Notes: generated by a model from the letters alone, not told the origin. A stretch of 57,088 nucleotides of DNA from a virus (IMGVR_UViG_3300044619_000511:1-57088); one strand, 5' to 3'. Numbered from the stretch's first letter, positions 1-27,423 are shown. Numbers and translations are program-made.

Positions 1-73
1 ATTCTTTTTTGTCGACATCAAATACCTTTGTCTTGATACCTTCTACGTGTAGTCCTATTTTCTCTATCCTCAT
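1..73 (-). CDS. N-terminus of an ORF running off the window (MRIEKIGLHVEGIKTKVFDVDKKE...)
   Basis: ATG at 73 overlaps the TGA of the upstream 22-aa ORF (ATGA); frame open to position 1. Confidence 0.55.
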   Translation of the reverse strand, partial: MRIEKIGLHVEGIKTKVFDVDKKE

Positions 74-138
74 AAACTTAGTAAAGTAAGAATGGTTACG
101 ATTAATAATACGATTGGTAGGGTGAAGCCCTTTTTCAT
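70..138 (-). CDS. 22-aa hydrophobic peptide MKKGFTLPIVLLIVTILTLLSL (prepilin-leader-like)
   Basis: Hand-translated; ATGA-coupled to both neighbours. Confidence 0.55.
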   Translation of the reverse strand: MKKGFTLPIVLLIVTILTLLSL

Positions 139-335
139 TCAATCTTTTTTGAGATGAAGATTCCGTTGGGTGTACGCTCTACGATTAACCCATTCTTTTC
201 CATCTCTGCCAGTTGCTCATCCAGTGGCATGATCGGGCCGTCAGTTTTAGAGAACCCTACGTTGTCGGGGATCTTACCACTGGCGGTCTTCTTTACTTTG
301 ATAGTTGACTTCTTGTTGAATGCGTTGTCGTTCAT
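135..335 (-). CDS. hypothetical protein
   Basis: 66 aa; preceded by ACAAAACCCC-ATG start motif. Confidence 0.7.
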   Translation of the reverse strand: MNDNAFNKKSTIKVKKTASGKIPDNVGFSKTDGPIMPLDEQLAEMEKNGLIVERTPNGIFISKKIE

Positions 336-580
336 GGGGTTTTGTTTTTGTGTAAATTAATAAGATTTTGTTTCAGCTCATCAAGGTAGATAATAATGTT
401 ATCCACATCGTGCTTATTGACTTCATCTCGTAACTGGCTTTCAGTTTCCAGTCCCTTGTCGTACCACCTAGCATCATCGCTCATCCGGTAGTAGAAGTCG
501 TGGTCAATAACTCTTTTCAGTAACTCTTTCATTTGCAAATAGTTGTTTAAATCCTCTATAAACTCCTCGCTTGTAGGCAT
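332..580 (-). CDS. hypothetical protein
   Basis: 82-aa ORF coupled to the downstream gene. Confidence 0.65.
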   Translation of the reverse strand: MPTSEEFIEDLNNYLQMKELLKRVIDHDFYYRMSDDARWYDKGLETESQLRDEVNKHDVDNIIIYLDELKQNLINLHKNKTP

Positions 581-797
581 CAGTCTCGTGGTTGAATGCT
601 CCCGCCAGTATCAGAGAGGTGACTGATACATACTTCGTTTCAATGTAGTGGAGGAGATTGGAGAATGTCTTACCATCTCTCAGCCTATCCAGTAGTTCTT
701 CGGGGGACGTAACTGGGACATCATCGAACTCATTGATTCGCTTTGCGTTGATATGCGCATCAGCGATTGCCTTGATTTCGGGGGTGATACGTTTCAT
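504..797 (-). CDS. hypothetical protein
   Basis: 97-aa ORF in the co-oriented early cluster. Confidence 0.65.
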   Translation of the reverse strand: MKRITPEIKAIADAHINAKRINEFDDVPVTSPEELLDRLRDGKTFSNLLHYIETKYVSVTSLILAGAFNHETDAYKRGVYRGFKQLFANERVTEKSY

Positions 798-800
798 AGA

Positions 801-965
801 TTATTGTTTGGTTACTAATCCTAACTGGACGGCGGTATCGGCATCGGCTTCGCTACCAAATTCAATGGTGGCTGGATACTCTCCTTCGGGGGAGGTGATT
901 TCAAAGTCGAGGTCTTCATCCATTAGATACATAATGTCAGATCGGGAGTGTGCTAGGTACTTCAT
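801..965 (-). CDS. small acidic protein (54 aa, MKYLAHSRSD...GLVTKQ)
   Basis: Hand-translated; fills the gap between neighbours exactly. Confidence 0.65.
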   Translation of the reverse strand: MKYLAHSRSDIMYLMDEDLDFEITSPEGEYPATIEFGSEADADTAVQLGLVTKQ

Positions 966-969
966 ATGT

Positions 970-1143
970 TTATAATTTTTGGTAACGTTTCCATCCTACT
1001 TGCTCCTCATCCTCACTGGCGAGTATCCTATACTTATCGCGTAGTTCGGAACGTAGCTTTCGGTCTTTTGTTTTGTGATACTCATCCCACACCTTGTCAA
1101 TCTCTGACTGGGGGGTTAGTTGCTGATAGATTTTCGATTTCAT
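970..1143 (-). CDS. small hypothetical protein (57 aa, MKSKIYQQ...KRYQKL)
   Basis: Hand-translated; stop 4 nt before the next ATG. Confidence 0.6.
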   Translation of the reverse strand: MKSKIYQQLTPQSEIDKVWDEYHKTKDRKLRSELRDKYRILASEDEEQVGWKRYQKL

Positions 1144-1188
1144 TTGCTAGTTTTATAATGTCATCGATTGCTTCTTGTATCTCTTTCA

Positions 1189-1455
1189 TTACCATTGATT
1201 TTCGGTGAAGAATTTAATTGCATTTTGCAGACTGCCAGTTGTCCCTTCCTTTACCTCAGTGCGACTGGGGATGCGGTTGCCGTAGTAGTCTCGGTGTGAC
1301 TGCTTGGGTAGGAAACACGCCCCCGACCTTAGTAACTCCATGGCCGTCCTTCCGACTGCCCCCTCCATCTTCCATGCAGTGCCGGATTCAATTAGTGACT
1401 GGATTTGGTCATAGCCTTGCTCTCGTTGGTGCTTGCGGATAGTTTGAATGTGCAT
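1189..1455 (-). CDS. hypothetical phage early protein
   Basis: 88 aa; start directly follows structured element 1 and the AACCAAACCC motif. Confidence 0.8.
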   Translation of the reverse strand: MHIQTIRKHQREQGYDQIQSLIESGTAWKMEGAVGRTAMELLRSGACFLPKQSHRDYYGNRIPSRTEVKEGTTGSLQNAIKFFTENQW

Positions 1456-1473
1456 ACATTAGGGTTTGGTTAG

Positions 1474-1519
1474 GAACTGGCATCCGTATCGATCGGATTA
1501 CGATTCTCTCTGCCAGTTC
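1474..1519 (-). ncRNA. tRNA-like minihelix element, copy 1
   Basis: GAACUGGC-[AGAGAGAAUCGUA]-AUCCG AUCGAUA CGGAU-GCCAGUUC: 8-bp closing stem plus 5-bp stem/7-nt loop. Confidence 0.8.
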
Positions 1520-1524
1520 GGGAG

Positions 1525-1752
1525 CTATTGAATAATCTTTAGTACTCGATGACCATAAAATGCATAGCCCTCAAATTCAATAAAATTACTAACTGGATCG
1601 GAACAAGAGGTTACCTTCAGCAACTGGCCCCTCTTAGGCCCATTCTCTAAATCTTCAACATCAATTGCTACAACTAAATCGCCTTCAAATAATTGTGTTC
1701 CGTCAATGTCATTGCAGTATTGGTTAACTGGAGTTTCTGATAGATTAGACAT
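1525..1752 (-). CDS. hypothetical protein
   Basis: 75 aa, bracketed by elements 1 and 2. Confidence 0.8.
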   Translation of the reverse strand: MSNLSETPVNQYCNDIDGTQLFEGDLVVAIDVEDLENGPKRGQLLKVTSCSDPVSNFIEFEGYAFYGHRVLKIIQ

Positions 1753-1771
1753 AGTATTTGGGTTTGGTTAG

Positions 1772-1812
1772 GAACTGGTTGCCATCGAAGGCCACGGCAT
1801 ATCCGCCAGTTC
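1772..1812 (-). ncRNA. tRNA-like element, copy 2 (degenerate)
   Basis: GAACUGG-CGGAUAUGCCG-UG-GCC UUCGAU GGC-AA-CCAGUUC. Confidence 0.65.
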
Positions 1813-1822
1813 GGGGGTGTTC

Positions 1823-2053
1823 TTAGAATGCGAGGCGCTTTAACTCATTGAGCATTGATTCTCCGCCATCGAATACTCCGTTGTAGGTTATCCAATATTG
1901 GAGTAATTCAAAGTCACTATACTGATCAAGAAGGTCGTAGCTTTCCTTATAGGTCTGATGTAGTTGCGCCGAGTCTATCTCGGCCATGTAATCCAACAAA
2001 TATTTTCTAAAGTCTTGGCACTTTTGGTTTGGTGGGGCGATGCATTTAAACAT
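1823..2053 (-). CDS. hypothetical protein (start MFKCIAPP)
   Basis: Start moved to ATG 2053, downstream of element 3. Confidence 0.75.
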   Translation of the reverse strand: MFKCIAPPNQKCQDFRKYLLDYMAEIDSAQLHQTYKESYDLLDQYSDFELLQYWITYNGVFDGGESMLNELKRLAF

Positions 2054-2072
2054 AAAATAGGGTTTTGATGAG

Positions 2073-2115
2073 GAACTGGGAGCGGAGTCGAACCGCTCTG
2101 ATACCATGCCAGTTC
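2073..2115 (-). ncRNA. tRNA-like element, copy 3
   Basis: GAACUGG-CAUGGUAUCA-GAGCGG UUCGACU CCGCUC-CCAGUUC; canonical T-loop GUUCGACUC. Confidence 0.85.
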
Positions 2116-2122
2116 GGGGGGA

Positions 2123-2218
2123 TTATAATGCCCGATTAGAGGGTAAAATAACGTATCCGTTTTTGATAGAAAAGAACTCACGGATTGAATTGCGGAAGGA
2201 CTTGATTGCTTTTGACAT
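2123..2218 (-). CDS. 31-aa peptide MSKAIKSFRNSIREFFSIKNGYVILPSNRAL
   Basis: Exactly fills the space between elements 4 and 3; CAAAACCCC start motif. Confidence 0.65.
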   Translation of the reverse strand: MSKAIKSFRNSIREFFSIKNGYVILPSNRAL

Positions 2219-2237
2219 TGTTAGGGGTTTTGATGAG

Positions 2238-2283
2238 GAACTGCGGTCGGTTTCGCTCCGACTTCGGTCTTACCTCGCAGTTC
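2238..2283 (-). ncRNA. tRNA-like element, copy 4
   Basis: GAACUGCG-[AGGUAAGACCGAA]-GUCGG AGCGAAA CCGAC-CGCAGUUC; compensatory change in closing stem. Confidence 0.85.
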
Positions 2284-2290
2284 GGGGGGG

Positions 2291-2782
2291 TTAAAATTCC
2301 CAGTCATAATGATACTCTGCTTGTCCAAAGAGAATGTTTACCTTAGGATACCTCCTTTTAGCCTTAGTGAATCCCTTGACCAGTTTAAGGTCGTTGTTAT
2401 CATCGTAGAGGCCTATTTCACTGCAGCGAATCCATAGGTCAACACTATTTTTAAACTGCTCATAGAACGATTCCTCAAAAACGATATTCTCAATCACCTC
2501 TCTCCATGCGCCATTGCGATAGATGAGAGTGCGTTTGTATCCATTGGGATTAGGAGTCAGTTCCCAATCTTGGTGTCCCATACCTTCCGAATTGGGCTTA
2601 GCCGTGTGATTCATTTCGCGGATGACACACTGCTTACCATCAGCGGATACCTCCAGTACTTCAGCGGGATGGCGGTCTGAATAGGAGAGGAGAGTAGCAC
2701 CTTTGCCTACCTCGGGGGTAGTCGAATTGTTGCCCATAAGGTAGTTGGTGAAGCTACCTTCGAGTCTTCTAGTTTGTCTCAT
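2291..2782 (-). CDS. hypothetical phage protein (start MRQTRRLEG)
   Basis: 163 aa; start set downstream of element 5. Confidence 0.8.
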   Translation of the reverse strand: MRQTRRLEGSFTNYLMGNNSTTPEVGKGATLLSYSDRHPAEVLEVSADGKQCVIREMNHTAKPNSEGMGHQDWELTPNPNGYKRTLIYRNGAWREVIENIVFEESFYEQFKNSVDLWIRCSEIGLYDDNNDLKLVKGFTKAKRRYPKVNILFGQAEYHYDWEF

Positions 2783-2801
2783 TGTAAGGGGTTTGATTCG
2801 T

Positions 2802-2845
2802 AACTGGGGGTGGTATCGCTCCACCTTCGCACATTGCTCCCAGTT
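2802..2845 (-). ncRNA. tRNA-like element, copy 5
   Basis: AACUGGG-[AGCAAUGUGCGAA]-GGUGG AGCGAUA CCACC-CCCAGUU: 7+5 bp, tRNA acceptor/T-arm geometry. Confidence 0.85.
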
Positions 2846-2853
2846 CGGGGGAC

Positions 2854-2937
2854 TTATCTACAAATTTGGTCTTGCAGTAAACCTACTACATACCCTACCA
2901 CTAGTAGGACAAGTAATAACTGAATAACTGGTTTCAT
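2854..2937 (-). CDS. 27-aa single-TM peptide MKPVIQLLLVLLVVGYVVGLLQDQICR
   Basis: Hand-translated; ATGA-coupled to the upstream gene, ends just before element 5. Confidence 0.6.
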   Translation of the reverse strand: MKPVIQLLLVLLVVGYVVGLLQDQICR

Positions 2938-3128
2938 AGAGGAGATAATTTAGCTTGTTTACAAAGACGCTCCCATTTAAGGTCACGTAGGATTTGCTTA
3001 GAGTCCCCGCCTAGTTCCACGAGGATTTGTTTCACGCGTGTGTGGGTGGAAATAACGGCTTCCGTTCTGCGGATTAACTGGCCATTGGCCTTAGCCGAGA
3101 ATAGGGGTGTTTTAATTCTCTTGCGCAT
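2934..3128 (-). CDS. hypothetical basic protein
   Basis: 64-aa ORF in operon. Confidence 0.65.
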   Translation of the reverse strand: MRKRIKTPLFSAKANGQLIRRTEAVISTHTRVKQILVELGGDSKQILRDLKWERLCKQAKLSPL

Positions 3129-3246
3129 TGCTTGGAGATTGAAGGGTTATTGAATCTGATTGAAAGGATACTACTAGCCATCCGTCGTATAGATACTGGG
3201 CAGCTAGTTGTTGTCCTTTTAGGGTGGTGAGGTTTATGCTTATCAT
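3112..3246 (-). CDS. hypothetical protein (start MISINLTT, 44 aa)
   Basis: Start downstream of element 6. Confidence 0.6.
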   Translation of the reverse strand: MISINLTTLKGQQLAAQYLYDGWLVVSFQSDSITLQSPSNAQEN

Positions 3247-3264
3247 AGCTGAGGTTTTGTTAAG

Positions 3265-3307
3265 TAACTGGGAGGGGAGTCGAACCCCTCCTAAGACCAT
3301 CCAGTTA
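3265..3307 (-). ncRNA. tRNA-like element, copy 6
   Basis: UAACUGG-AUGGUCUUAG-GAGGGG UUCGACU CCCCUC-CCAGUUA; begins in the UAA stop of the PAPS-reductase-like gene. Confidence 0.85.
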
Positions 3308-4066
3308 TCCGCAGACGAACTCTGCGACCTTGAACTGCGCATCACCCTCAACGATATCCTTCAGCCAGTTTTTCTCCTTCCCACTCATAAGAAGGGTAAA
3401 GCCCAGTCTCTCCTCAGTTTCAACGTATCGCTTGTATAACTGGGGGTTATGCTTCGCGGCTACCTTGATATCGCTCTTGTTACTCATAATGCAAAACACA
3501 CAAGATAGACGGCTCATGCCGAGGTCATAGGCGTAGTGTCTCTTCTGACCTACGGACTCAATTTCCGCCCATACTTCCTTCACGCTCCAGTCAAAGATGG
3601 GTAGCCAGTCATACCACTCACGACCTGCTTTGCTATTGCGCTCATTGAGACGGAATGGGATTTGCTTTGCTCGTGCGGATGATTCTTCTGCACGAATCCC
3701 CATACAATTCACAATGAGAGTTTTACCTCGCTCCTTGCACCAGTTACGGATAAATTTCTCGATTGGCTGACGCTTGAGGTCGCTTGTACACTGGCGATAA
3801 CTGGGGGATGGGAACATCCCACGATGCTCAACCATCTCAAAGAAGGTTTTACCGGCACGAACTAAATGCGCCTCTATGCCCAATGAATTCTCTTGTACGT
3901 GACTCCAACACCCCTCCCAGTCAACTTCGGGAAGGTCTGCGTGAACGATTACCAATTGGTCGTGAGGAACTACCTTGCTAAGAAATATCTTCATCGCTTG
4001 GCTATCCTTTCCTCCGGAATCATTGATAAAAAAGATTGCACCTTTGTCGATTAATTCTTGAATCAT
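3305..4066 (-). CDS. PAPS reductase family (PP-loop) protein
   Basis: SGGKDS PP-loop, CTSDLK, GIRAEESxxR, RLSCVFC; start MIQELIDK at 4066. Confidence 0.9.
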   Translation of the reverse strand: MIQELIDKGAIFFINDSGGKDSQAMKIFLSKVVPHDQLVIVHADLPEVDWEGCWSHVQENSLGIEAHLVRAGKTFFEMVEHRGMFPSPSYRQCTSDLKRQPIEKFIRNWCKERGKTLIVNCMGIRAEESSARAKQIPFRLNERNSKAGREWYDWLPIFDWSVKEVWAEIESVGQKRHYAYDLGMSRLSCVFCIMSNKSDIKVAAKHNPQLYKRYVETEERLGFTLLMSGKEKNWLKDIVEGDAQFKVAEFVCG

Positions 4067-4079
4067 AACTGGGGTTTTG

Positions 4080-4128
4080 GGTTTCGGCCTGCTTGGCCTC
4101 ATCAGTACGGATAGCGTATCCGTAGACC
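4080..4128 (-). ncRNA. type III hammerhead ribozyme
   Basis: GGUC|UACGGAUA CGC UAUCCGUA CUGAUGA GGCC AAGCA GGCC GAAA CC: full catalytic core, stem I 8 bp, stem II 4 bp, stem III 3 bp; predicted cut between 4125 and 4124. Confidence 0.85.
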
Positions 4129-4129
4129 T

Positions 4130-4490
4130 TGTCATTTCGGGGGTAGTCAATGGCGATAAATCGGCCAACAACATCTGCCCCAGTAGGTGAGTCCTTTCGG
4201 TTCTCTCACCCCAACACCCTAACTACAACTTGTGTAGGTTTGGCGCGACCTTGTGTGAACACTGGGAGTCGGTTCGTTACCGCCAGTGTGCCTGTGTTTA
4301 TGTGCCGAGGAAGGCATCCTCGAGTCTCTCTCGCTCAACACGATTTTATCGAGACCATCGCTTTGCATTTATCGTGGTTTGGTGTCCGTCCGTCCATCGT
4401 ACTCACCTAGTCTGGTGGATGGGTGGGGGTGCATTGCCCTAACACGTTGTAGCGAACATTTGAAAGAACTGCGGACTCATTGTCGAATCC
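4130..4490 (-). ncRNA. putative large structured leader/ncRNA
   Basis: No credible ORF; many hairpins and long-range complementary segments between promoter and hammerhead. Confidence 0.55.
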
Positions 4491-4491
4491 G
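4459..4491 (-). promoter_or_regulatory. boxB-like hairpin followed by boxA-like AGTTCTTTCAAA
   Basis: CGGATTC GACAAT GAGTCCG then GTTCTTTCAA just after the predicted start site; resembles rrn-type boxA. Confidence 0.5.
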
Positions 4492-4494
4492 ATG

Positions 4495-4527
4495 CAAACA
4501 TAGGGTGGCAGGGTAACTACTTCCAAA
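4495..4527 (-). promoter_or_regulatory. Bacteroidota sigma70-type promoter of early operon
   Basis: TTTG (-33), 21-nt spacer, TATGTTTG (-7, TAnnTTTG); A/T-rich upstream tract. Confidence 0.8.
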
Positions 4528-4651
4528 TTTTTTTACAACTTTTTTTAAAAATACGTATTCTTACTTAGAATTTGGATTGAGAATCAAGCAATTAAGCAAA
4601 AAAATAATTTAGGGGTAAGTAAGGTCGGGAGGGTAAAATGGGGGTATCGGC

Positions 4652-4727
4652 TACTAAAAGCATTAGTAATCAATACTAAAGAAATTAGCTGGTTGTCAAT
4701 GAAAGCAAATTGCTAAAGAGATTAGCA
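4652..4727. promoter_or_regulatory. three operator-like palindromes TRCTAA-N5-TTAGYW
   Basis: 4652-4668, 4674-4690, 4711-4727. Confidence 0.6.
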
Positions 4728-4750
4728 AAGGCGGGGGGTTCGGGGGAATA

Positions 4751-5083
4751 CTAGAGCCGTTTATTAAGTAGATAGCTCCGTATATAGGATAAGTACTCTC
4801 TCCCTAGAGGAGTAATAGAATACCGCTTGTGTGTCTCCCTAATAGCAAGGCCAAGAAGACAAAGAGAATTCAAGTAGTTCCAAGAGGAACGATTGTCTGC
4901 CCGCTTAACATGGGGGCGATGCAAAAAAACAAAATCAGCTAAGGCCGTTTGACTGGTAGTGCCTAGCCTACGAAGGCCGTATAAAAATCGTAACTGGGTA
5001 TAGTTTAACTCAGCAATTCCAGTACGCTGAGATGCACGATAAATGGCAGTATCTACACACAAAAAGAATTTCTCAATCTTCAC
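4751..5083 (-). CDS. winged-helix (MarR-like) DNA-binding protein
   Basis: LNYTQLRFL...SQTALA...YSITPLGREYL wHTH pattern. Confidence 0.7.
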   Translation of the reverse strand: MKIEKFFLCVDTAIYRASQRTGIAELNYTQLRFLYGLRRLGTTSQTALADFVFLHRPHVKRADNRSSWNYLNSLCLLGLAIRETHKRYSITPLGREYLSYIRSYLLNKRL

Positions 5084-5518
5084 GGATGAAAGGTTTTTTG
5101 TAAAGGGAGGAGGGGGGCTATTGTATCTTTAAACACACACGCATAATCGCCACATTCCCAATATGTTGCAAGGTTTTTATCCAGTTCCGTTTCCCTCTTC
5201 ATTCCCTCCCCATTGATTACCCCACTACCTCCTTCACAACCTAACGCAATATGTGTCAGCCAGTTAGGTATTATATGGGGGTTATATGGTATTACCCGTT
5301 CAGCCCTAAAATCGTTTTTGGAACTGCCAAAAATACCCCCACCCAGTTTGCGTTTTGCGATTCGCAAAATTATCAAAAGCCACTTAAAATAATGTATTAC
5401 CCCCACTCTTTTCCCACACACATCTGATCTATAAACCCTTGGCATAAACTCTCGATTTTTTGTAGTCCAAATTTAGGCTTTATTTGTTGGTTATAGACGG
5501 GTGTGAAAAACTTGTATC

Positions 5519-11684: not shown

Positions 11685-13668
11685 TGGTTCTAAAGAAAAT
11701 ATACAGGGGTTGTTATGTTATACACCCCCACCCGGTTTTGTATTCAATATACTAAACGGGGAGATAGAGGAGCGATCTGTATACGCTAGGTCCCCAAAGA
11801 AGTCTGAACAGTATTTTGACTATACTCCTCTGCCAAAGGATTATGCAAAGATTAGGGCTAAGGAGCAGCAAAGGCAGAACGAGGACCCTGAGTATTTCGA
11901 TCCTAAGCTGGAACAATTTCGTCAACAGGAGTGGGACCGTAGGCTTAATGGTTACTGGTTTTACAATAATGGCGTTCCAACCTACATTACAGGTCTGCAC
12001 TACTTCTATTTAAATTACTGGAATCTAGATACCGGTCTACCAAAGTATAGGGACACTGACAGGAAGTATTTCTATTTTATGCAGTACTGCATTGAGGACC
12101 CAGAGTGTATGGGAATGGTAGAGATTACTAAGCGTAGACAGGGTAAGACATTCCGTGGTGGTGTGTTCTTATATGAATACCCGTCTAGAACTAATAATGC
12201 TAAGTCTGGTATCCAATCCAAGACTGGTGCAGATGCTAAGGAGGTATTCCGTAAGGCTGTGATCCAGCCGTTCAAGAAGCTACCTGATTTTTTTGTACCC
12301 ATCTTTGATGCGTCTAAAGGTTTAACTCCAACCTCTGAACTTCGTTTCTATCAAACTACTGTTAAGGGTAGGAAGGCTAATATGATTAAGGATGAGCATG
12401 AATTGGAATCAGCTATAGACTGGAAGACTTCAGAGGCTATATCTTACGACGGACAGAAGTTGCACAGGTATCTAGGAGATGAGGTTGGTAAGACGATGGA
12501 GGTGGATGTCTGGAACAGATGGCTGGTTACAAAGTACTGTCATCTAGATGATGAGGGTAGGATTATTGGTAAGGCTTTATTAACCACTACAGTTGAGGAT
12601 ATGGAGCAGGGTGGTGCTTCTTTTAAGAAGATATGGGAGAACTCTGATCAGAATAATAAAAAGGGTAAGAGAACTGCCTCTGGTCTTTACCGTTACTTCT
12701 GTAGTGCTGCAGAGACTAGATACTATAATGATTATGGTATAGCGGATCGTGCTAAGGCTGAACAGGAGATAAGGGATGAGAGAAAGCTATTAGCTCACGA
12801 CCCCCGAGCTCTCAGTTCTGTAATTAGAAAGGAGCCTATTGAGTGGGAGGAAGCGTTTAGGATCGATGGTAGCAAGTGCTTGTATAACCCTGAGTTTCTG
12901 AACGAAAGAATGGATAGGCTAAGTTGGAAGGATAATTTGACAACAAGAGGTAACTTTGTGTGGCTTAATGGCGACCGAGACACTAGGGTTGTTTTTGAAC
13001 CATCAAAGACTGGCCGGTGGGAGGTTGCAAAGCTATTTGAAAAAGAAGAGGATAGTAACAATGTTAAAAAAACAGGTGGTCTATTCCACCCGGCTAACGG
13101 CTTAAACTTTGTGATAGGTGTGGACCCAGTGGACCACAACGTAACAGAGGATGGCAGAAGGTCAAACGGTGCAGGGATGGTACTTCAGAAGTACAGCGCC
13201 GCTCGGGAGAATGATATCTATAACTACGCATTCGTTGCTAAGTACGCATACCGTCCTGAATCAGTCCAAATATTCTATGAGGATATGATTAAGATGGCAG
13301 TATACTATGGTGCCCCAGTATTGTTTGAGAACCAGAAGATTGGTCTTATGCACTACTTCGATGATCGGGGGTATGCTCCATTCCTTACATGGCTACCTGA
13401 AAGGAACCAGCCGGGTATTGCAGCCAGTGCTAAAACGCACCAGCAAATAGCTGAGCTGACTGAGGACTATATCAATAAGATGCACGATCGGGTTTATTTT
13501 AAGGATCTGATCCAAGACTGGCTAGAGTTTGATATATCCAAAACAACCAAGTTTGACTTGGCTATGGCAGCTGGGTACGCCCTGATCGCCGACCAAGTTA
13601 AAGTAAACGTGAAAGGAACTGGTCAGATACGAGACGTGTCTGATTATTTTAGGAAGAATAAAATATAA
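11665..13668 (+). CDS. terL: terminase large subunit
   Basis: Walker A KRRQGKT, Walker B LGDEVGK, nuclease GVDP...ENQK...D. Confidence 0.92.
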   Translation: MFSPINNGSKENIQGLLCYTPPPGFVFNILNGEIEERSVYARSPKKSEQYFDYTPLPKDYAKIRAKEQQRQNEDPEYFDPKLEQFRQQEWDRRLNGYWFYNNGVPTYITGLHYFYLNYWNLDTGLPKYRDTDRKYFYFMQYCIEDPECMGMVEITKRRQGKTFRGGVFLYEYPSRTNNAKSGIQSKTGADAKEVFRKAVIQPFKKLPDFFVPIFDASKGLTPTSELRFYQTTVKGRKANMIKDEHELESAIDWKTSEAISYDGQKLHRYLGDEVGKTMEVDVWNRWLVTKYCHLDDEGRIIGKALLTTTVEDMEQGGASFKKIWENSDQNNKKGKRTASGLYRYFCSAAETRYYNDYGIADRAKAEQEIRDERKLLAHDPRALSSVIRKEPIEWEEAFRIDGSKCLYNPEFLNERMDRLSWKDNLTTRGNFVWLNGDRDTRVVFEPSKTGRWEVAKLFEKEEDSNNVKKTGGLFHPANGLNFVIGVDPVDHNVTEDGRRSNGAGMVLQKYSAARENDIYNYAFVAKYAYRPESVQIFYEDMIKMAVYYGAPVLFENQKIGLMHYFDDRGYAPFLTWLPERNQPGIAASAKTHQQIAELTEDYINKMHDRVYFKDLIQDWLEFDISKTTKFDLAMAAGYALIADQVKVNVKGTGQIRDVSDYFRKNKI

Positions 13669-20827: not shown

Positions 20828-21922
20828 ATGTCAAAAAAGATGTTGGTCAATCTTGACCTAACCAAAAATCAGATCCTCAACGTAGCGTTGCAGAATCTTG
20901 GCGGTCCACCCGCTTCGCCTGTTGCTGGCCAGATATACTACAATACCGCAGATGGTAACGTATATTACTGGAATGGTACGGCTTGGGTAAGCATCTCAGG
21001 AGATATCACTGCTGTAGTTGCTGGCGCAGGTCTTACTGGTGGTGGTACTAGCGGATCTGTAACTTTAGATCTTAACCCAGATAATACTACAATTGAAGTT
21101 GACTCTGATATTGTAAGAATTAAAGATCTTGGGGTTAGTACTGGTAAATTAGCAAATGATGCTGTTACGACTATCAAGGTGACAGATTCTAATATTACAT
21201 TCGCTAAAATACAGAACATTGCTACAATGACCGTTATGGGTCGTGTGGCTTCTGGCACTGGTGTTGCTAGTGAGATTTCAATTCTCGACAGCAATACAAT
21301 GTCAGGCGCGTCTTCTTTAAACTTAGCAACAGCTGGTTCAATTAAGGCATATGTTGATAACACTGTGGCTGGCCTAGGTAATCTTGAAGGTGGGTTCGCC
21401 GCAGGTTCTTCTGTTAACTTTCCTACTGGTGCTGGTGGTACTAAGAAAGGAGACTATTGGTATGTTACCAGTGCGGGTACAGTTCAAGGAGTTGCATTAA
21501 ATATTGGCGATGTATTGATCGCTAATATCGATAACGCTTCTCCTACTTCATCTTCTGACTGGACATTCCTTGAGTCTAATCGTGACCAAGCTACTGAAAC
21601 AGTTCTTGGCGTTGTAAGACTTGCGACTCAAGTAGAAGCTGATGCAGGAATAAATGATACTGCAGTTATTACCCCATTAAAATTAAAAACAGTTCTTGAT
21701 AACCGTGTTGGCGGGTATGCTGCTAATATTGGTAACGGAGCTGCTACATCTTACGCTGTTACTCACTCGCTGAATACAATTGATGTTATTGTTATGATTA
21801 AGGACAACGCAACTCTTGAAGAAGTTTTTGCTGACGTCGTTATCACAGATGCAAATACCGTGACGGTAAGTTTTGCAATTGCTCCACTTAGTAATGCATA
21901 CAGAGTAATAATTAAGAAATAA
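20828..21922 (+). CDS. fibre-like virion protein
   Basis: GQIYYNT, AGAGLTGGG, ATETVLGVVRLAT, H.LNT.DV motifs. Confidence 0.75.
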   Translation: MSKKMLVNLDLTKNQILNVALQNLGGPPASPVAGQIYYNTADGNVYYWNGTAWVSISGDITAVVAGAGLTGGGTSGSVTLDLNPDNTTIEVDSDIVRIKDLGVSTGKLANDAVTTIKVTDSNITFAKIQNIATMTVMGRVASGTGVASEISILDSNTMSGASSLNLATAGSIKAYVDNTVAGLGNLEGGFAAGSSVNFPTGAGGTKKGDYWYVTSAGTVQGVALNIGDVLIANIDNASPTSSSDWTFLESNRDQATETVLGVVRLATQVEADAGINDTAVITPLKLKTVLDNRVGGYAANIGNGAATSYAVTHSLNTIDVIVMIKDNATLEEVFADVVITDANTVTVSFAIAPLSNAYRVIIKK

Positions 21923-24900
21923 TGAGATTTCTAACAAACATATTAGCAAAGGCTGGTTTAATAGTAGACGGTACTACGCAATTAAATACAATTGCTAACG
22001 CTACTGTTGACACAGATAAGTTTCTTGTAAGTGATGGCGGTGTCGTTAAATATAGAACAGCCCCTCAGTTGGTTGCTGATCTTGGCCCGCTCCCATCATC
22101 TGTATTAAGACATCAGGTAAAACTTGGTGAGGCAATTAATAAAGGACAAGCAGTATACGTATCTAGTGCAGACGGTACTAATATGATTGTATCTAAGGCG
22201 TCAAATGTTACAGACTTAACATCATCAAAGACGCTTGGACTTATAGAGACAAGTGGTGTAACTAATGATCAGGTTAATGTAGTCACAGAAGGATTGCTGG
22301 CTGGTCTTGATACATCTACAGCCACTGCTGGTGACCCAGTATGGTTGGGGACAAATGGTAACCTAATATTCGGATTAGTTAATAAACCATCTGCGCCAGC
22401 TCACCTAGTATTTATAGGGGTTGTAACAAGAGTTCAATCTGTAAATGGTGAGATCTTTGTTAAGGTGCAGAACGGGTTTGAGATGGAAGAACTTCATAAC
22501 GTTGCCATCTCTTCTATAGCAAATAAAAACTTGTTGATGTATGAAGCAGCGACAAGTTTATGGAAGAATAAAACTCTTGGTAATGTTATTGGCGGTACAT
22601 CTACACAGTATGTAAAAGGTGACGGTACTCTTGGATCATTCCCTGATATTGGTGGTGGAGGTGGATTAGTATACTATCTAAATGGAAGTGTTTCTGCTAG
22701 TGTTGGCGGATATTTTCAAATGAGTAAGACGCCAGTTATTGGAGCTGGAACTGACTTTAGTAAAACAGGAGATGGATTAATATGCCAGTTTTTAACTGAC
22801 GTGAATGACCCATCTTTGCTTAGCGTGCCATCTGGTGCTTGGAGATTCGGTTTATATGCTTCAATGGGTAGCGCAGGTAACTCATCAAAATTCTATGTTG
22901 AGGTATTTAAGTATGATGGTACTACATTTACATTAATAGGTAGTTCTTCTGGCACCCCAGAGTCAGTATCTAATGGTACTGCAATAGAGTACTATACGAC
23001 TACCGTAGCGATGTCTACTACTGCTTTAACTGTTACAGATAGAATAGCGGTAAGGGTATACGCCACAGATAACAACACTAGAACAATGACTATTCATACT
23101 GAGAATAGCCACTTGTGTGATATTTCAACTACATTCCCTTCTGGTATAGCATCTATCAATGGATTAATTACTCCTTCACAATATTTATCTACAACAACTA
23201 CTGGAACTGATTTCACAATCTCTTCCTCTAGCAATACACATTATTTTAATCTTCCTGTTGCTAGTGCTACCATAACTGGTAAGCTTAGCTCCACTGACTG
23301 GTCTACCTTTAACAATAAGCAAAATGCTTTAGGGTATACCCCTGTTAACCAGACTAGATCATTAACAATTAATGGAGTCACATATGATCTATCTTCTGAT
23401 AGAACTTGGAGCGTAGGTACGGTTACTTCAGTTGGGCTATCTGTTCCAACTGGATTTTCAGTATCTAATACTCCAGTAACAGGAAGTGGAACAATAGGAC
23501 TTTCTTTTACAGCTGGTTATTCTTTACCAACCACTGCGTCTCAATCGAATTGGGACGTAGCATATACAAATAGAATTACATCCCTGACTACTACAGGTAC
23601 AAGTGGCGCTGCTACATTAGTTAGTAACGTACTTAATATACCTCAGTATCAAGCTCAGGGTAGTTATATAACTTCATTAACAGGTGAGGCTACGGCATCA
23701 GGTCCGGGGTCTGCATCTGTAACACTATCTACATCCGCAGTCACAGGTAAGGTGCTTACCGGTTTAAACGTAACCGGTGGCACTGTACTTGCTACTGATT
23801 CTATTTTAACTGCATTCGGTAAGTTGCAGAATCAAGTAAATGGTTTAGCTGGAGGTGTAACTTATCAGGGTGCATGGGATGCTTCTACTAACTCTCCATC
23901 TCTTACAAGTTCTGTTGGAACTAAGGGATATTATTATGTGGTATCAGTTGCTGGTTCTACAAACCTAAACGGTATCACAGACTGGAAGCTTGGAGATTGG
24001 GCGATCTTTAATGGTACTGCATGGGAGAAGGTTGACAACACAGACGCGGTAGTTTCTGTAAACGGGTTTACTGGCGCTGTTAGTTTAACAACTACAAATA
24101 TCGCTGAAGGTACTAACCTTTATTATACAGATACTAGAGCAAGAGCTGCTATTAGTTTAACTACTACTGGTACATCTGGCGCTGCTACCTATTCTGCAGG
24201 AGTATTAAATATTCCTCAGTATAGTTTGGCCGGGCTCGGGGGAGTTCCAAGTAATAGAACACTAACAATCAACGGAACATCATACGATTTATCTGCAGAC
24301 AGGACATGGACGATTACAAATATATCCGGTAACTCAGCTACCACTTCAGCCGTTTCAGGTACTACCAACTATATCCCCAAGTTTACAAGTTCAAGTGCAA
24401 TAGGAAATAGTGCAGTTTATGATGCTTCTGGAAGTATTGGTATTGGAACTTCAAGTCCAGTTGCAAATACTCCTTTGACTTTACAGGCAGCAAGTGGTTA
24501 TACAGATATTTTGTGGTTAAAATCAGCGGGAACAAACATTGATGCAAGAATTAATATGGCTCCAACTGGAACTGGTCTTGCTCAATTAAATAATACAAAC
24601 GGAACTGGGATTGCTTTTCAAATATCAGGTAGTGAGCAAATGCGTCTTACCTCTACTGGCTTGGGTATAGGTACTTCCCCAACACAAAAATTACACGTTT
24701 TTGGTACAAGTGGTGCAACAACTGCCATCATAGAAGGTGCAACAAATGCAAGCGCATACGGTAAATTAGAGTTAAGAGGTAGACCAGCTGGTGCAGGCCA
24801 ATCTACAGGTTGGATTGTAGCTGCATCAACAGAAGGAGGTCAAGCTGCAACAAACGTAGCAGGTATTGATTTCACAATGGCTGGGGCTGCTGGCAATGCG

Positions 24901-27423
24901 CATAATATTCAAATATCTACTCATAATGGTACTTCATTAACAGAGAAGATGAGAATAGGTAGCACTGGTACAGTAAGATTACTTAGTTATACCACAAACG
25001 GTTTCGTTAAGTTTTCAAATAGTGATGGTACTTTAACAGTAGACACTAATACATATCTTACTGCTGAATCAGATACTCTAGCTACAGTTACCGGAAGAGG
25101 CGCAAGCACCTCCTCCGCTTTAACACTTAATGGGAGTGTTACACTTACATCTGCTTATACAGGTGGTAGTGGAGACTGGACGGGTGTAAGTACTCCAATA
25201 TTAAAGATCGCTCCTATTTCAGGTTATTGGAGAATACCTCACCTATCAAATAATGCAACTGTTTCAGGAGTTTATAATTATGAAACAAATAAGGATGTGT
25301 ATTGGGGTGAGCCTACTGATAGTGGCAACTATTATTTCAGAGGAAGGGTATTAAAGCATGAGAACTCGTTAGGTCAAATTTCAACATATTTACATTCTAA
25401 TAACTATAATAGTTATGCTCCAACCTTAACAGGTGGAGGAGCATCAGGAACTTGGGGAATTAGTATTACGGGGTCAGCGGGTAGTGCTAGTTCAGTTCCT
25501 TGGACAGGAGTTAGTGCGGGTACTAGAACTAACTATACTCTTAGATTTCAACCTCTTGCAAGTGATTATGCAGGTTTTGAGTTCAATACTTCTAGTGGTG
25601 GTGGAGGAGGATATTTTTTAATTAGAGGAACGTCTGATAGTGATGTATATACTGCAGAAGGTATTACACTTGTTGCAGATGCAGGATGGTTGACTCTTGC
25701 TCAGAGAACAGCATCAAGTAAGGGTGTTAGAATTATGACAGGTACAACATCAGCAGTAAGGGCATCTTTTGCTACAGATGGTAGTATAAACTTTACAGGA
25801 GACCCTGTTGCATCAGGATCATTCCGCGCTCCATATTTCTACGATTCATCTAATACATCGTATTATGGTAGATTCTCAGGTACATCAAGAATGTATGGCG
25901 CTCAGTTTGATTATGTAGGTATTGGTCAGGGCATTAATACGAGTTATAGTTTAATAACTAATGGATCGATTTATCTTAACAGTAACTCTAACGGCTGGGC
26001 GGAAGGTACTTGGAAACAGCGTAGAGGTGGTGCAACATTCTATGATGTTATTGATACGGGTAATTATAATTCATATTCTCCAACCTTGACAGGTGGAGGA
26101 GCCAGTGGTACATGGGGGATAAGTATTACAGGTACTGCAGCAGGTGAAACACTTGCAACTGTAACTGGTAGAGGGGCAAGTACTTCTACTGCTGTTACTT
26201 TTAATGGTAATGTAAATGTTGGCACTTCTGCTTCTCTTCTATTTGGAAGTCAGACAAGACAGATGATAAATCTGTGGGGTACACAATATGGAATTGGCGT
26301 GCAGTCTAATACTTCATATTTTAGAAGCGATGGCAGGTTTTCTTGGTTTAGAGGTGGAACACATAATGATGCTCAAAATAATCCCGGTGGTGGTACAGTA
26401 GCTATGACACTTGATGGATCAAGTAATTTAATTGTTACTACTTCTGTTCAGGCTCCTATCTTCTATGACTCTGCTAATACATCATACTACTTAGACCCGA
26501 ATTCAACTACTTCTATTAGAACAGTAGGTTCTTGGAGAGCGGATTCATCTGCATGGGACGGGGAGTTTAATGGTAAGATACAATACCATTCTAACCATTG
26601 GTATATACAAGGGGCTGATTTGTTTATATATAGAAATTCAGGTGGATCGAATGTATTTACTGTAAACCAAGGAGGGACTGCTACAGCTACAGGAGATATG
26701 CGTGCGCCTATTTTCTATGATTCTGCTGATACTACTTATTTCGCAGACCTTGCTAGTACGAATACTTCCATCTATACAGCAGGTATCATCAGATCTTCAG
26801 GGGTACAAGTAAAGGGAAGTTCAACCGGTGGTCAGATATATCCTACTATGTCTAATGGTGGTGTTAGTTTGTATGGTGGTAATAGTTTTACTAACGGTGC
26901 CTACTTTACTGTAACAGGTATCGACTATGCTTCTTCTCCCGGTGCAGGTAGTGCTGAGTTTGTTATCAGAAATACTGCAACATCTAAGTTCGCTCTATTC
27001 TCTTACAACGGGTCTACTTGGACAGGCAGATACGGACTCTTTGGATCTACAGGTAACGTGACTATAGGAGATGCCAACACTGACATTGGGTATCGCCTAT
27101 ATGTTATCGGTGATATATATGCTACCGGTAATATAATTGCAAACTCTGATGCTCGTATTAAAACAAATATAAGAGAGATCGAAAATCCACTAGCTCGTGT
27201 GCTTAATACTAAGGGTGTTATATACGACCGTATTGATATCGAAGAGAACAATAGTATAGGTTTTATAGCACAAGAATTAGAAAAGGAATTCCCTGAATTA
27301 GTTTCTACTAGCACAGACGGAAGAAAGGGTGTTAAGTATCAGAACATGGTTGCAGTACTTGTAGAGGCTATTAAAGAACAGCAAAAACAAATTGATATTT
27401 TACAATCATTAATAAATAAATAA
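21922..27423 (+). CDS. long tail fibre with C-terminal intramolecular chaperone (peptidase S74)
   Basis: 1833 aa G/S/T-rich with internal repeats; SDARIKTNI...GFIAQE...LVEAIKE. Confidence 0.9.
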   Translation: MRFLTNILAKAGLIVDGTTQLNTIANATVDTDKFLVSDGGVVKYRTAPQLVADLGPLPSSVLRHQVKLGEAINKGQAVYVSSADGTNMIVSKASNVTDLTSSKTLGLIETSGVTNDQVNVVTEGLLAGLDTSTATAGDPVWLGTNGNLIFGLVNKPSAPAHLVFIGVVTRVQSVNGEIFVKVQNGFEMEELHNVAISSIANKNLLMYEAATSLWKNKTLGNVIGGTSTQYVKGDGTLGSFPDIGGGGGLVYYLNGSVSASVGGYFQMSKTPVIGAGTDFSKTGDGLICQFLTDVNDPSLLSVPSGAWRFGLYASMGSAGNSSKFYVEVFKYDGTTFTLIGSSSGTPESVSNGTAIEYYTTTVAMSTTALTVTDRIAVRVYATDNNTRTMTIHTENSHLCDISTTFPSGIASINGLITPSQYLSTTTTGTDFTISSSSNTHYFNLPVASATITGKLSSTDWSTFNNKQNALGYTPVNQTRSLTINGVTYDLSSDRTWSVGTVTSVGLSVPTGFSVSNTPVTGSGTIGLSFTAGYSLPTTASQSNWDVAYTNRITSLTTTGTSGAATLVSNVLNIPQYQAQGSYITSLTGEATASGPGSASVTLSTSAVTGKVLTGLNVTGGTVLATDSILTAFGKLQNQVNGLAGGVTYQGAWDASTNSPSLTSSVGTKGYYYVVSVAGSTNLNGITDWKLGDWAIFNGTAWEKVDNTDAVVSVNGFTGAVSLTTTNIAEGTNLYYTDTRARAAISLTTTGTSGAATYSAGVLNIPQYSLAGLGGVPSNRTLTINGTSYDLSADRTWTITNISGNSATTSAVSGTTNYIPKFTSSSAIGNSAVYDASGSIGIGTSSPVANTPLTLQAASGYTDILWLKSAGTNIDARINMAPTGTGLAQLNNTNGTGIAFQISGSEQMRLTSTGLGIGTSPTQKLHVFGTSGATTAIIEGATNASAYGKLELRGRPAGAGQSTGWIVAASTEGGQAATNVAGIDFTMAGAAGNAHNIQISTHNGTSLTEKMRIGSTGTVRLLSYTTNGFVKFSNSDGTLTVDTNTYLTAESDTLATVTGRGASTSSALTLNGSVTLTSAYTGGSGDWTGVSTPILKIAPISGYWRIPHLSNNATVSGVYNYETNKDVYWGEPTDSGNYYFRGRVLKHENSLGQISTYLHSNNYNSYAPTLTGGGASGTWGISITGSAGSASSVPWTGVSAGTRTNYTLRFQPLASDYAGFEFNTSSGGGGGYFLIRGTSDSDVYTAEGITLVADAGWLTLAQRTASSKGVRIMTGTTSAVRASFATDGSINFTGDPVASGSFRAPYFYDSSNTSYYGRFSGTSRMYGAQFDYVGIGQGINTSYSLITNGSIYLNSNSNGWAEGTWKQRRGGATFYDVIDTGNYNSYSPTLTGGGASGTWGISITGTAAGETLATVTGRGASTSTAVTFNGNVNVGTSASLLFGSQTRQMINLWGTQYGIGVQSNTSYFRSDGRFSWFRGGTHNDAQNNPGGGTVAMTLDGSSNLIVTTSVQAPIFYDSANTSYYLDPNSTTSIRTVGSWRADSSAWDGEFNGKIQYHSNHWYIQGADLFIYRNSGGSNVFTVNQGGTATATGDMRAPIFYDSADTTYFADLASTNTSIYTAGIIRSSGVQVKGSSTGGQIYPTMSNGGVSLYGGNSFTNGAYFTVTGIDYASSPGAGSAEFVIRNTATSKFALFSYNGSTWTGRYGLFGSTGNVTIGDANTDIGYRLYVIGDIYATGNIIANSDARIKTNIREIENPLARVLNTKGVIYDRIDIEENNSIGFIAQELEKEFPELVSTSTDGRKGVKYQNMVAVLVEAIKEQQKQIDILQSLINK

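Follow-up and report, generated by a model that had tools for sequence, protein, structure and literature searches.

A candidate modular leader RNA with a boxA-like head and a hammerhead tail in the early operon of a lake phage

Promoter-proximal RNA signals in phage early transcripts, such as lambda nut and HK022 put, make polymerase termination-resistant. Phages also carry large, conserved, multi-domain structured RNAs (GOLLD and ROOL), whose role is unknown. In ribosomal RNA operons, the rrn leaders of B. subtilis begin with a small hairpin with boxA directly after it, the rrn boxA being UGCUCUUUAACA in E. coli and AUGAUCUUUGAAA in B. subtilis (PMC13753749, in excerpt), and the boxA elements of the suhB leader and of CRISPR arrays are taken to block Rho (10.1101/091223 and PMC13753749, both in excerpt). 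Hammerhead ribozymes flank genes in prophages, and in the haloarchaeal viruses HF1 and HF2 a hammerhead precedes the first early ORF by 13 nt, with the mRNA 5' end mapped at the cut (Perreault et al. 2011, PMC3088659, in excerpt).

The DNA analyzed here, which we call the window, is the whole of an IMG/VR virus record of 57,088 bp with a completeness estimate of 86%. Its structural genes are podovirus-like and include those for a P22-like portal and an SU10-like capsid protein, along with very large virion proteins. The portal shares only 26-28% identity with its counterparts in cultured podophages of Flavobacterium and Cellulophaga, and matching DNA comes from lake and freshwater metagenomes. 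The structural block includes very large plus-strand ORFs at 21922-27423 (1833 aa), 32451-36488 (1345 aa), and 39611-46966 (2451 aa). A minus-strand gene block occupies 1-5445, and the leader discussed here lies in a 685-nt gap in that block. For this gap, an initial annotation had proposed a discrete non-coding RNA with a promoter at one end and a hammerhead cut at the other; most of its local hairpins and its boundary motifs survive the comparison with relatives, its size agrees with the predicted ends, and its pseudoknot is not supported. We read 4490-4125 (minus strand) as an untranslated, folded leader RNA of the leftward early operon, with an antitermination head, an exchangeable cargo, and release by a ribozyme, and we give this reading about an even chance. 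The features that define it are as follows.

5083-4751, minus strand: ORF of 110 aa upstream of the gap
4495..4527, minus strand: promoter-like sequence (TTTG, 21 nt, TATGTTTG) in the -33/-7 layout of Bacteroidota sigma-A promoters
4490, minus strand: predicted transcription start, a G, +/-2 nt, counted from position 4495, which is G(-5) in the -7 box
4472..4491, minus strand: 5'-terminal, boxB-like hairpin of 7 bp with a 6-nt loop (helix 1; 92.9% paired)
4459..4469, minus strand: boxA-like GUUCUUUCAAA, directly 3' of the 5' hairpin
4446-4381, minus strand: domain 1 of the core
4376-4255, minus strand: domain 2 of the core
4250-4139, minus strand: domain 3 of the core
4080..4128, minus strand: type III hammerhead (Rfam RF00008 match at 4132-4076, 31.4 bits, E 1.3e-4)
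4066-3305, minus strand: PAPS-reductase-family gene, the first after the ribozyme (PF01507, E 5e-13; phrog_424, E 2e-38)
4066-4064, minus strand: AUG start codon of the PAPS-reductase-family gene

Each of the described systems resembles this locus in part. Like an rRNA-operon leader, the candidate transcript has a small hairpin at its 5' end, then a U-rich boxA-like block, and then a long untranslated structured RNA that would later be cut out; unlike that leader, it belongs to a phage early operon and would be released by a self-cleaving ribozyme, not by RNase III in a leader-trailer helix. The comparison is one of sequence layout. With the suhB leader and gamma-proteobacterial CRISPR arrays the locus shares a boxA near the start of a long untranslated stretch, whereas here the setting is another phylum and a phage, and the boxA is duplicated together with a second RNA module in three relatives (L002, L296, and L248). 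In a lambda-type nut site boxA comes before the boxB hairpin, to which a phage N protein binds; here the hairpin precedes boxA in 12 of 12 copies, which is the rrn order, and, in contrast to both nut and put, the RNA is several times larger and would be cleaved off. GOLLD and ROOL differ in that the leader RNA is smaller, modular, and ribozyme-defined, with no Rfam match to either.

As in HF1 and HF2, the first ORF of a polycistronic early transcript begins a few nucleotides after the hammerhead, which is thought to define the mRNA 5' end. In contrast to them, it has a standard type III core, comes from a bacterial lake phage, and would cut off a conserved, folded RNA of ~366 nt. The main text of PMC3088659, as excerpted, describes no folded leader with an antitermination-like head. 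A literature search joining hammerhead, boxA, and phage returned, in the excerpts seen, only an engineered ribozyme in rrn constructs, and the rest appeared unrelated.

To obtain relatives of the leader, IMG/VR and JGI metagenomes were scanned with protein-anchored searches and patterns. This yielded 13 related leader sequences in ~10 distinct groups, counting the window itself (window, L003, L002, L200, L295, L296, L297, L283, L186, L041, L043, L248, and L210). Positions 4050-4620 had no blastn match among 50,697 cultured-phage records, and a pattern for the 3' domain had none among 185,579 prokaryote species (one genome each). In metagenomes, the same pattern matched seven contigs, one of which is a chance match (L293) and two of which repeat L003. 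Among the matches listed by an IMG/VR 14-mer scan, only chance occurrences and no homologous new locus appeared, and 8 of the 11 matches to the pattern GATRCTCTTCACCGGAG are, by eye, unrelated chance with no hammerhead beside them. A covariance model of the 3' domain, run against 170 sources (1.41 Mb), recovered only 14 already known copies and found no copy beside the other ~100 phage hammerheads. Since these other hammerheads have neither copies of the 3' domain nor boxA enrichment, we regard the family as a narrow clade. Hammerheads of the same style (GGUCU..ACUGAYGA..CGAAACC) are found in at least 119 phage contigs of IMG/VR (loci L163-L281), including several large groups of near-identical contigs.

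At the 5' boundary, the promoter-like sequence resembles the -33/-7 consensus of Bacteroidota sigma-A promoters (Baez 2019, PMC6847099, and PMC9723704; both in excerpt). Its layout and 21-nt spacer are kept, by eye, in 12 of the 13 relatives' sequences, with L186 deviating. The -7 box carries a G at -9 (at -10 in some relatives), unlike the refined consensus TAHHTTTG; a G at -9 is nearly absent from F. johnsoniae promoters (PMC6847099, in excerpt). In the window the promoter pattern has three matches against 1.89 expected, which alone is not significant. Counting from the predicted start G4490 to the predicted cut after C4125 gives 366 nt, in agreement with the "~365 nt" of the initial annotation. 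Between the 110-aa ORF, for which a family search gave no informative match, and the promoter lie inverted repeats of the type GCTAA-N7-TTAGC (4727-4700 and 4690-4655; fold z -4.0). Repeats of this type likewise lie upstream of the promoter in L283, L043, and L248, and they may be operators for the upstream ORF. In L041, L200, L295, L296, L297, L248, and L043, sites reading TGTGGATAA, which we take to be a DnaA-box-like consensus, are found 30-120 nt upstream of the promoter.

The hairpin and the boxA-like block that open the predicted transcript are the sole block common to all copies. This unit is present in 12 of 12 leader copies (9 loci), including loci with unrelated cores, and within it the hairpin stem is kept while the loop varies (window, L003, and L041). 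The boxA-like block has five invariant columns and two nearly so, and its G-UCUU core is invariant in 12 of 12 copies. GUUCUUUCAAA matches 10 of the 11 positions of GYTCTTTAANA, a consensus that is gamma-proteobacterial (10.1101/091223, in excerpt). Position 8 of the block is C, against A in the published consensus, and GUUCUUUCAAA is intermediate between the rrn boxA sequences of E. coli and B. subtilis. The rrn-type arrangement, a hairpin at the very 5' end (4491-4472) and then a boxA-like block, is found here, given the predicted position of the start. The boxA-like 10-mer occurs twice in the window against 1.64 expected and alone is not rarer than chance. The boxA and promoter patterns both occur at chance frequency, and their weight rests on their conserved position in relatives. 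The boxA core motif shows no enrichment in front of other phage hammerheads (8 of 101 in sense orientation versus 6 of 101 antisense). By analogy with rrn leaders, the hairpin-boxA head would load Nus factors.

At the 3' boundary, the hammerhead is the only Rfam match at E<=1 in the whole window. Its score falls under the RF00008 gathering score of 48.5 bits (31.4 bits in the window and 31.8-45.3 in relatives); matches are found in eight related loci with E between 8e-7 and 5e-3 (L041, L042, L043, L283, L186, L200, L296, and L297). The sequence has the conserved core CUGANGA ... GAAA, the A15.1-U16.1 pair, and a GUC cleavage triplet (NUH), and none of its core columns varies among the 8 relatives. 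The three helices (I and II loop-capped, III open) have 94.2% of cells paired in these relatives, with 9 of 15 pairs compensatory and 0 of 500 shuffles equal. Stem III is only 3 bp in the window. The L003 and L002 loci, which have no Rfam hammerhead match at E<=1, carry a variant in which U7 is replaced by C and one U is inserted after A9. The predicted cut falls between C4125 and U4124, 58 nt before the first gene, and it is there that the RNA would cleave itself in vivo.

To examine the fold between these boundaries, we aligned six full-length window-type sequences (the window and relatives). These amount to ~3 independent lineages, so the covariation counts below partly repeat inherited changes. 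The local structure comprises 12 helices and 64 pairs, with 98.4% of cells paired in the six sequences. Changes on both sides are seen in 14 of the 64 pairs. Of 500 column shuffles, 0 perform as well, and slid controls are 28-42% paired. For the 3' domain alone, RNAalifold on eight sequences gives 31 pairs, of which 13 are compensatory. Conserved G-U pairs occur on the minus strand only, which fixes the RNA sense as minus. The predicted fold energy is ordinary (MFE -115 kcal/mol, z -0.63, with 27 of 100 shuffles folding equally well; plus strand z -1.40; non-significant MFE z-scores on both strands). Therefore, the case for structure rests on covariation among relatives. The main elements of the core are the following.

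4394..4422, minus strand: domain 1 hairpin CCAUC-CACC...GGUG...GAUGG (helices 2-3; 9 pairs, 100% paired, invariant)
4323..4356, minus strand: helix GGUCUC/GAGACU (4356-4351/4328-4323) closing a variable branch (helix 4; 6 pairs, 100% paired)
4306..4322, minus strand: hairpin CGAGGA-UGCCU-UCCUCG (helix 5; one C-G to U-A swap)
4259..4289, minus strand: hairpin ACACUGG...CCAGUGU with inner GGU/ACC (helices 6-7; 10 pairs, 100% paired, invariant)
4223..4237, minus strand: 3'-domain hairpin of 5 bp, three of which covary
4185..4211, minus strand: hairpin GGGUGAG..CC-GAAA-GG..CUCACCU (helices 9-10; 5 of 7 stem pairs covary in eight sequences)
4140..4181, minus strand: outer GGG/CCC stem with inner hairpin (helices 11-12; stems covary, loop invariant)
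4163-4155, minus strand: conserved apical loop CGAUUUAUC (invariant in the window group)

Three of the four hairpins named in the initial annotation are kept in all six aligned relatives. CGAGGA/UCCUCG is conserved with a single swap, C4322-G4306 to U-A, which a DNA contig of run X16 repeats; ACACUGG/CCAGUGU with its inner GGU/ACC is conserved and invariant; and GGUGAG..GAAA..CUCACC is conserved with compensatory changes in 4 of its 7 pairs in the six-sequence alignment. The fourth, CACGAU/AUCGUG, is not conserved and forms in the window only; the competing helix 4356-4351/4328-4323 covaries instead, one of its pairs going from U-A to C-G and another from G-U to A-U. The site of CACGAU/AUCGUG is interrupted in L003 and the L200 group by ~30 inserted nt that form a GNRA-capped hairpin of their own, and the branch inside 4356-4323 is 22 nt long in the window and ~50 nt, with a GNRA hairpin, in relatives. 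The hairpin at 4237-4223 appears in four different, fully complementary stem versions in eight sequences, and a DNA contig of run X16 changes A4235-U4225 to C-G, so that two DNA contigs of this run add independent swaps. In a DNA contig of run X17, 4386-4424 is replaced by 6 letters. The loop sequence CGAUUUAUC also caps a covarying hairpin in L043, and L248 has UGAUUUAUC there. Across lineages, the loops and linkers GCGCCAAACCU, AGGGUGUUGG, and CGAUUUAUC are invariant, which points to selection on sequence as well as on fold.

The three crossing long-range helices postulated earlier (A, B, and C; 27 pairs) behave differently from the local structure, with 67.3% of cells paired and no two-sided changes, no better than shuffles. 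Helix A has 71% of its cells paired, since its 3' arm coincides with the local hairpin 4237-4223. Helix C is 48% paired, breaks in relatives, and conflicts with two supported hairpins. In helix B (4428-4421 with 4219-4210), the inner 8 pairs are pairable in 6 of 6 sequences, solely via C-to-U changes on one side. These pairs share bases with supported helices, and in L186 the 3' partner is present but has no 5' counterpart. The A-B-C pseudoknot is not supported, being without covariation and having two of its three helices contradicted by relatives. From the alignment, a long-range or alternative helix B is possible, as is a switchable RNA in which the inner part of helix B would compete with the supported local helices. 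An 8-nt pairing of 4373-4366 with the CGAUUUAUC loop was also considered and rejected: by eye, the window pairs perfectly, L003 pairs less well, and L186, L283, and L043 have no such pairing.

Rfam 15 has no match at gathering scores in 4134-4470, and only chance-level matches (E 6-10) appear in 3900-4800. When the window and 14 related loci were scanned at E<=1, only hammerheads, a tRNA, and four sub-threshold matches outside the leaders were found. As a result, the leader run matches no family apart from the hammerhead at its boundary. Among other known classes, a tRNA or tmRNA, a group I intron, any further known ribozyme besides the hammerhead, and a retron or CRISPR-like repeats were rejected, there being neither Rfam matches nor any repeat structure. 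Two further kinds of element were seen elsewhere in the window. Four intergenic tRNA-like elements of ~50 nt lie on the minus strand in the early operon (2851-2796, 2288-2236, 2120-2069, and 1817-1768; fold z -3.8, -3.8, -2.9, and -1.7). All are closed by a 7-9-bp stem on GAACUGN/NCAGUU, and some contain a 3-bp hairpin. Three of them also have a stem of 5-6 bp, with a loop of 7 nt, that stacks on the 3' strand. From each element it is 15-25 nt to the next AUG, across a C/A-rich leader that resembles the post-hammerhead one. ARAGORN and Rfam find nothing at these elements, which may serve as RNase P/Z-type punctuation and so play the part that the ribozyme plays in the leader. The 9-mer CCCCCGARC occurs 15 times in the window (4 plus, 11 minus), against a mean of 0.27 and a maximum of 3 in 200 shuffles. 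Its sites include 4746-4738, 12801-12809, 33057-33065, and 56843-56835; five copies lie at early-gene boundaries and the rest mostly inside ORFs of other blocks, on both strands. It looks like a DNA-level motif, perhaps a modification, recognition, or recombination site.

On the comparative evidence, the leader RNA is structured, non-coding, and without a catalogued family, and this bears on two readings that place its function elsewhere. That the region codes for a small protein on either strand we regard as barely credible. Antisense frames are the longest ones open, with 79-87 codons in the window and as many as 134 in L295. Single-nucleotide indels in close relatives interrupt them, in line with the earlier statement that the region holds no credible ORF. 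Substitutions show no codon periodicity (19/16/18 by codon position against L003 and 23/25/22 against L200), four ORF translations have no match in Pfam or PHROG, and the changes compensate in RNA helices instead. The higher GC noted before is also borne out (0.51-0.52 across 4101-4500 versus 0.33-0.40 immediately upstream). A DNA-level element, such as a replication origin or a single-strand initiation signal, seems very improbable too. It would fit the primase-helicase that the window encodes, as well as the two TGTGGATAA sites with an AT-rich stretch just upstream of the promoter in L041, L200, L295, L297, and L248 (one exact copy in L043 and at least one in L296). However, the window and L003 are without these boxes, which in any case fall outside 4130-4490, and the G-U pairs make the fold strand-specific. 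The GNRA loops, the terminal ribozyme, and RNA-library contigs over the element likewise speak against a DNA-level role. These contigs, from the metatranscriptome runs X19 and X20 of one study, cover 4177-4478 and 3778-4087 at 100% identity, and no RNA contig of the runs examined spans 4088-4176 or extends above 4478. Assembled contigs show neither transcript ends nor strand, and RNA libraries can hold DNA, so that this hint of expression is weak.

The comparison of relatives further indicates that the folded core, from the boxA-like block to the ribozyme, is built of modules that are exchanged among them. L186 has domain 3 only, behind a different 5' part; L041 has domain 1 only and is divergent thereafter; L283 has the CGAGG hairpin and the 3' domain in common with the window; and L043, L248, and L210 have other cores. 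In L002, L296, and L248, an extra folded module of ~150-190 nt is accompanied by a second boxA copy. This module (L002 1990-2110, L296 330-465, and L248 3470-3615) sits between two hairpin-boxA units, shows at least one compensatory swap by eye (GCCU..AGGC versus GACU..AGUC), and has no Rfam match in the three loci scanned. Gene order is mosaic at the ribozyme (window 3000-4133 compared with L003, L041, and L004). The PAPS reductase gene follows the hammerhead directly in the window, comes after a small gene in L003 and L002, and is absent in L041 and L042. Altogether, conservation, fold, boundary motifs, and modularity can be read from the aligned sequences themselves.

Under our preferred reading of an untranslated leader RNA released by a ribozyme, a host-type (Bacteroidota-like) promoter would drive its transcription, at the very start of infection to judge from its position. 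The nascent hairpin-boxA would load host NusB/S10 and other Nus factors onto RNA polymerase, and polymerase would thereby cross ~300 nt of untranslated, partly C-rich RNA and the downstream genes without Rho-dependent termination. The core would fold as a chain of independent hairpin modules, domains 1-3, before the hammerhead cuts after C4125 to give a free ~366-nt RNA with a 2',3'-cyclic phosphate end, an end that may slow some 3' exonucleases (PMC10250234, in excerpt). The cut mRNA would start with a 5'-OH and the compactly folded ribozyme, followed by a short C/A-rich leader without structure that runs up to AUG 4066; such a leader suits hosts that initiate without Shine-Dalgarno pairing (PMC6847099, in excerpt). 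Since the two ends, hairpin-boxA and ribozyme, stay constant and the modules of the core are exchanged, we read the core as cargo. We infer a role in trans for the released RNA, which would be an early RNA binding or decoying a host or phage factor.

Two other readings accept the RNA and differ on what its core does. In one, which we hold to be unlikely, the leader acts in cis, sensing a ligand, a protein, or temperature and setting cleavage, put-like polymerase behavior, or how the first gene is translated. The distance from domain 3, with its invariant CGAUUUAUC loop, to the hammerhead is always 15-45 nt (in the window group and in the otherwise different L043/L248 group, L248 having UGAUUUAUC), a ribozyme stem III of only 3 bp could let neighboring structure affect cleavage, and the inner helix B, pairable in every aligned sequence, competes with supported local helices. 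Regulated cleavage of phage hammerheads was also raised by Perreault et al. (PMC3088659, in excerpt). Against such regulation, domains 1 and 2 are dispensable or replaced (L186, L041, and L283), and the first gene after the ribozyme differs among relatives, so that no single regulated gene goes with the RNA. There is no Rfam riboswitch match, the alternative pairings are without covariation, and a single sensing core tied to one gene, as expected of a riboswitch, is not what the relatives have, domains being swapped or absent in L186, L041, L283, and L043. That last observation, a high turnover of modules between close relatives, would suit the other reading, in which the core is a partnerless structured stuffer whose use would be to protect the 5' end or to insulate the promoter from the operon, or which simply tolerates selfish RNA modules. 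Two DNA contigs, both of low depth and weak, would fit it too, one of run X16 joining 4128 to 4463 (a single contig with a 30-nt side) and that of run X17 swapping 39 nt for 6. Against it, compensatory changes maintain at least 14 pairs, and several loops and linkers are invariant across lineages (GCGCCAAACCU, AGGGUGUUGG, and CGAUUUAUC), which implies selection on sequence too; we rate this reading as quite unlikely.

Phage hammerheads have been known since 2011. The piece cut off here would be a conserved multi-domain RNA with an rRNA-style antitermination head, whose domains are exchanged between related phages. More speculatively, the hairpin-boxA head and hammerhead tail could together form a phage "RNA expression cassette", in which an inserted module is transcribed Rho-proof as infection begins and is freed with a protected cyclic-phosphate end. 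Module swapping would then reflect an arms race fought with RNA, in which the modules serve to decoy or soak up targets of host defence or takeover, and the duplicated boxA of L002, L296, and L248 would mark a second cargo; this is a tentative idea that we would sooner doubt than accept. If the leader RNA reading is true, the locus would be a testable case of a phage borrowing the host rRNA transcription machinery for a non-coding RNA, and it would offer a natural ribozyme-defined RNA 3' end. Its uncatalogued modules would then be candidates for a part in early host takeover or in anti-defence among lake phages of the Bacteroidota type.
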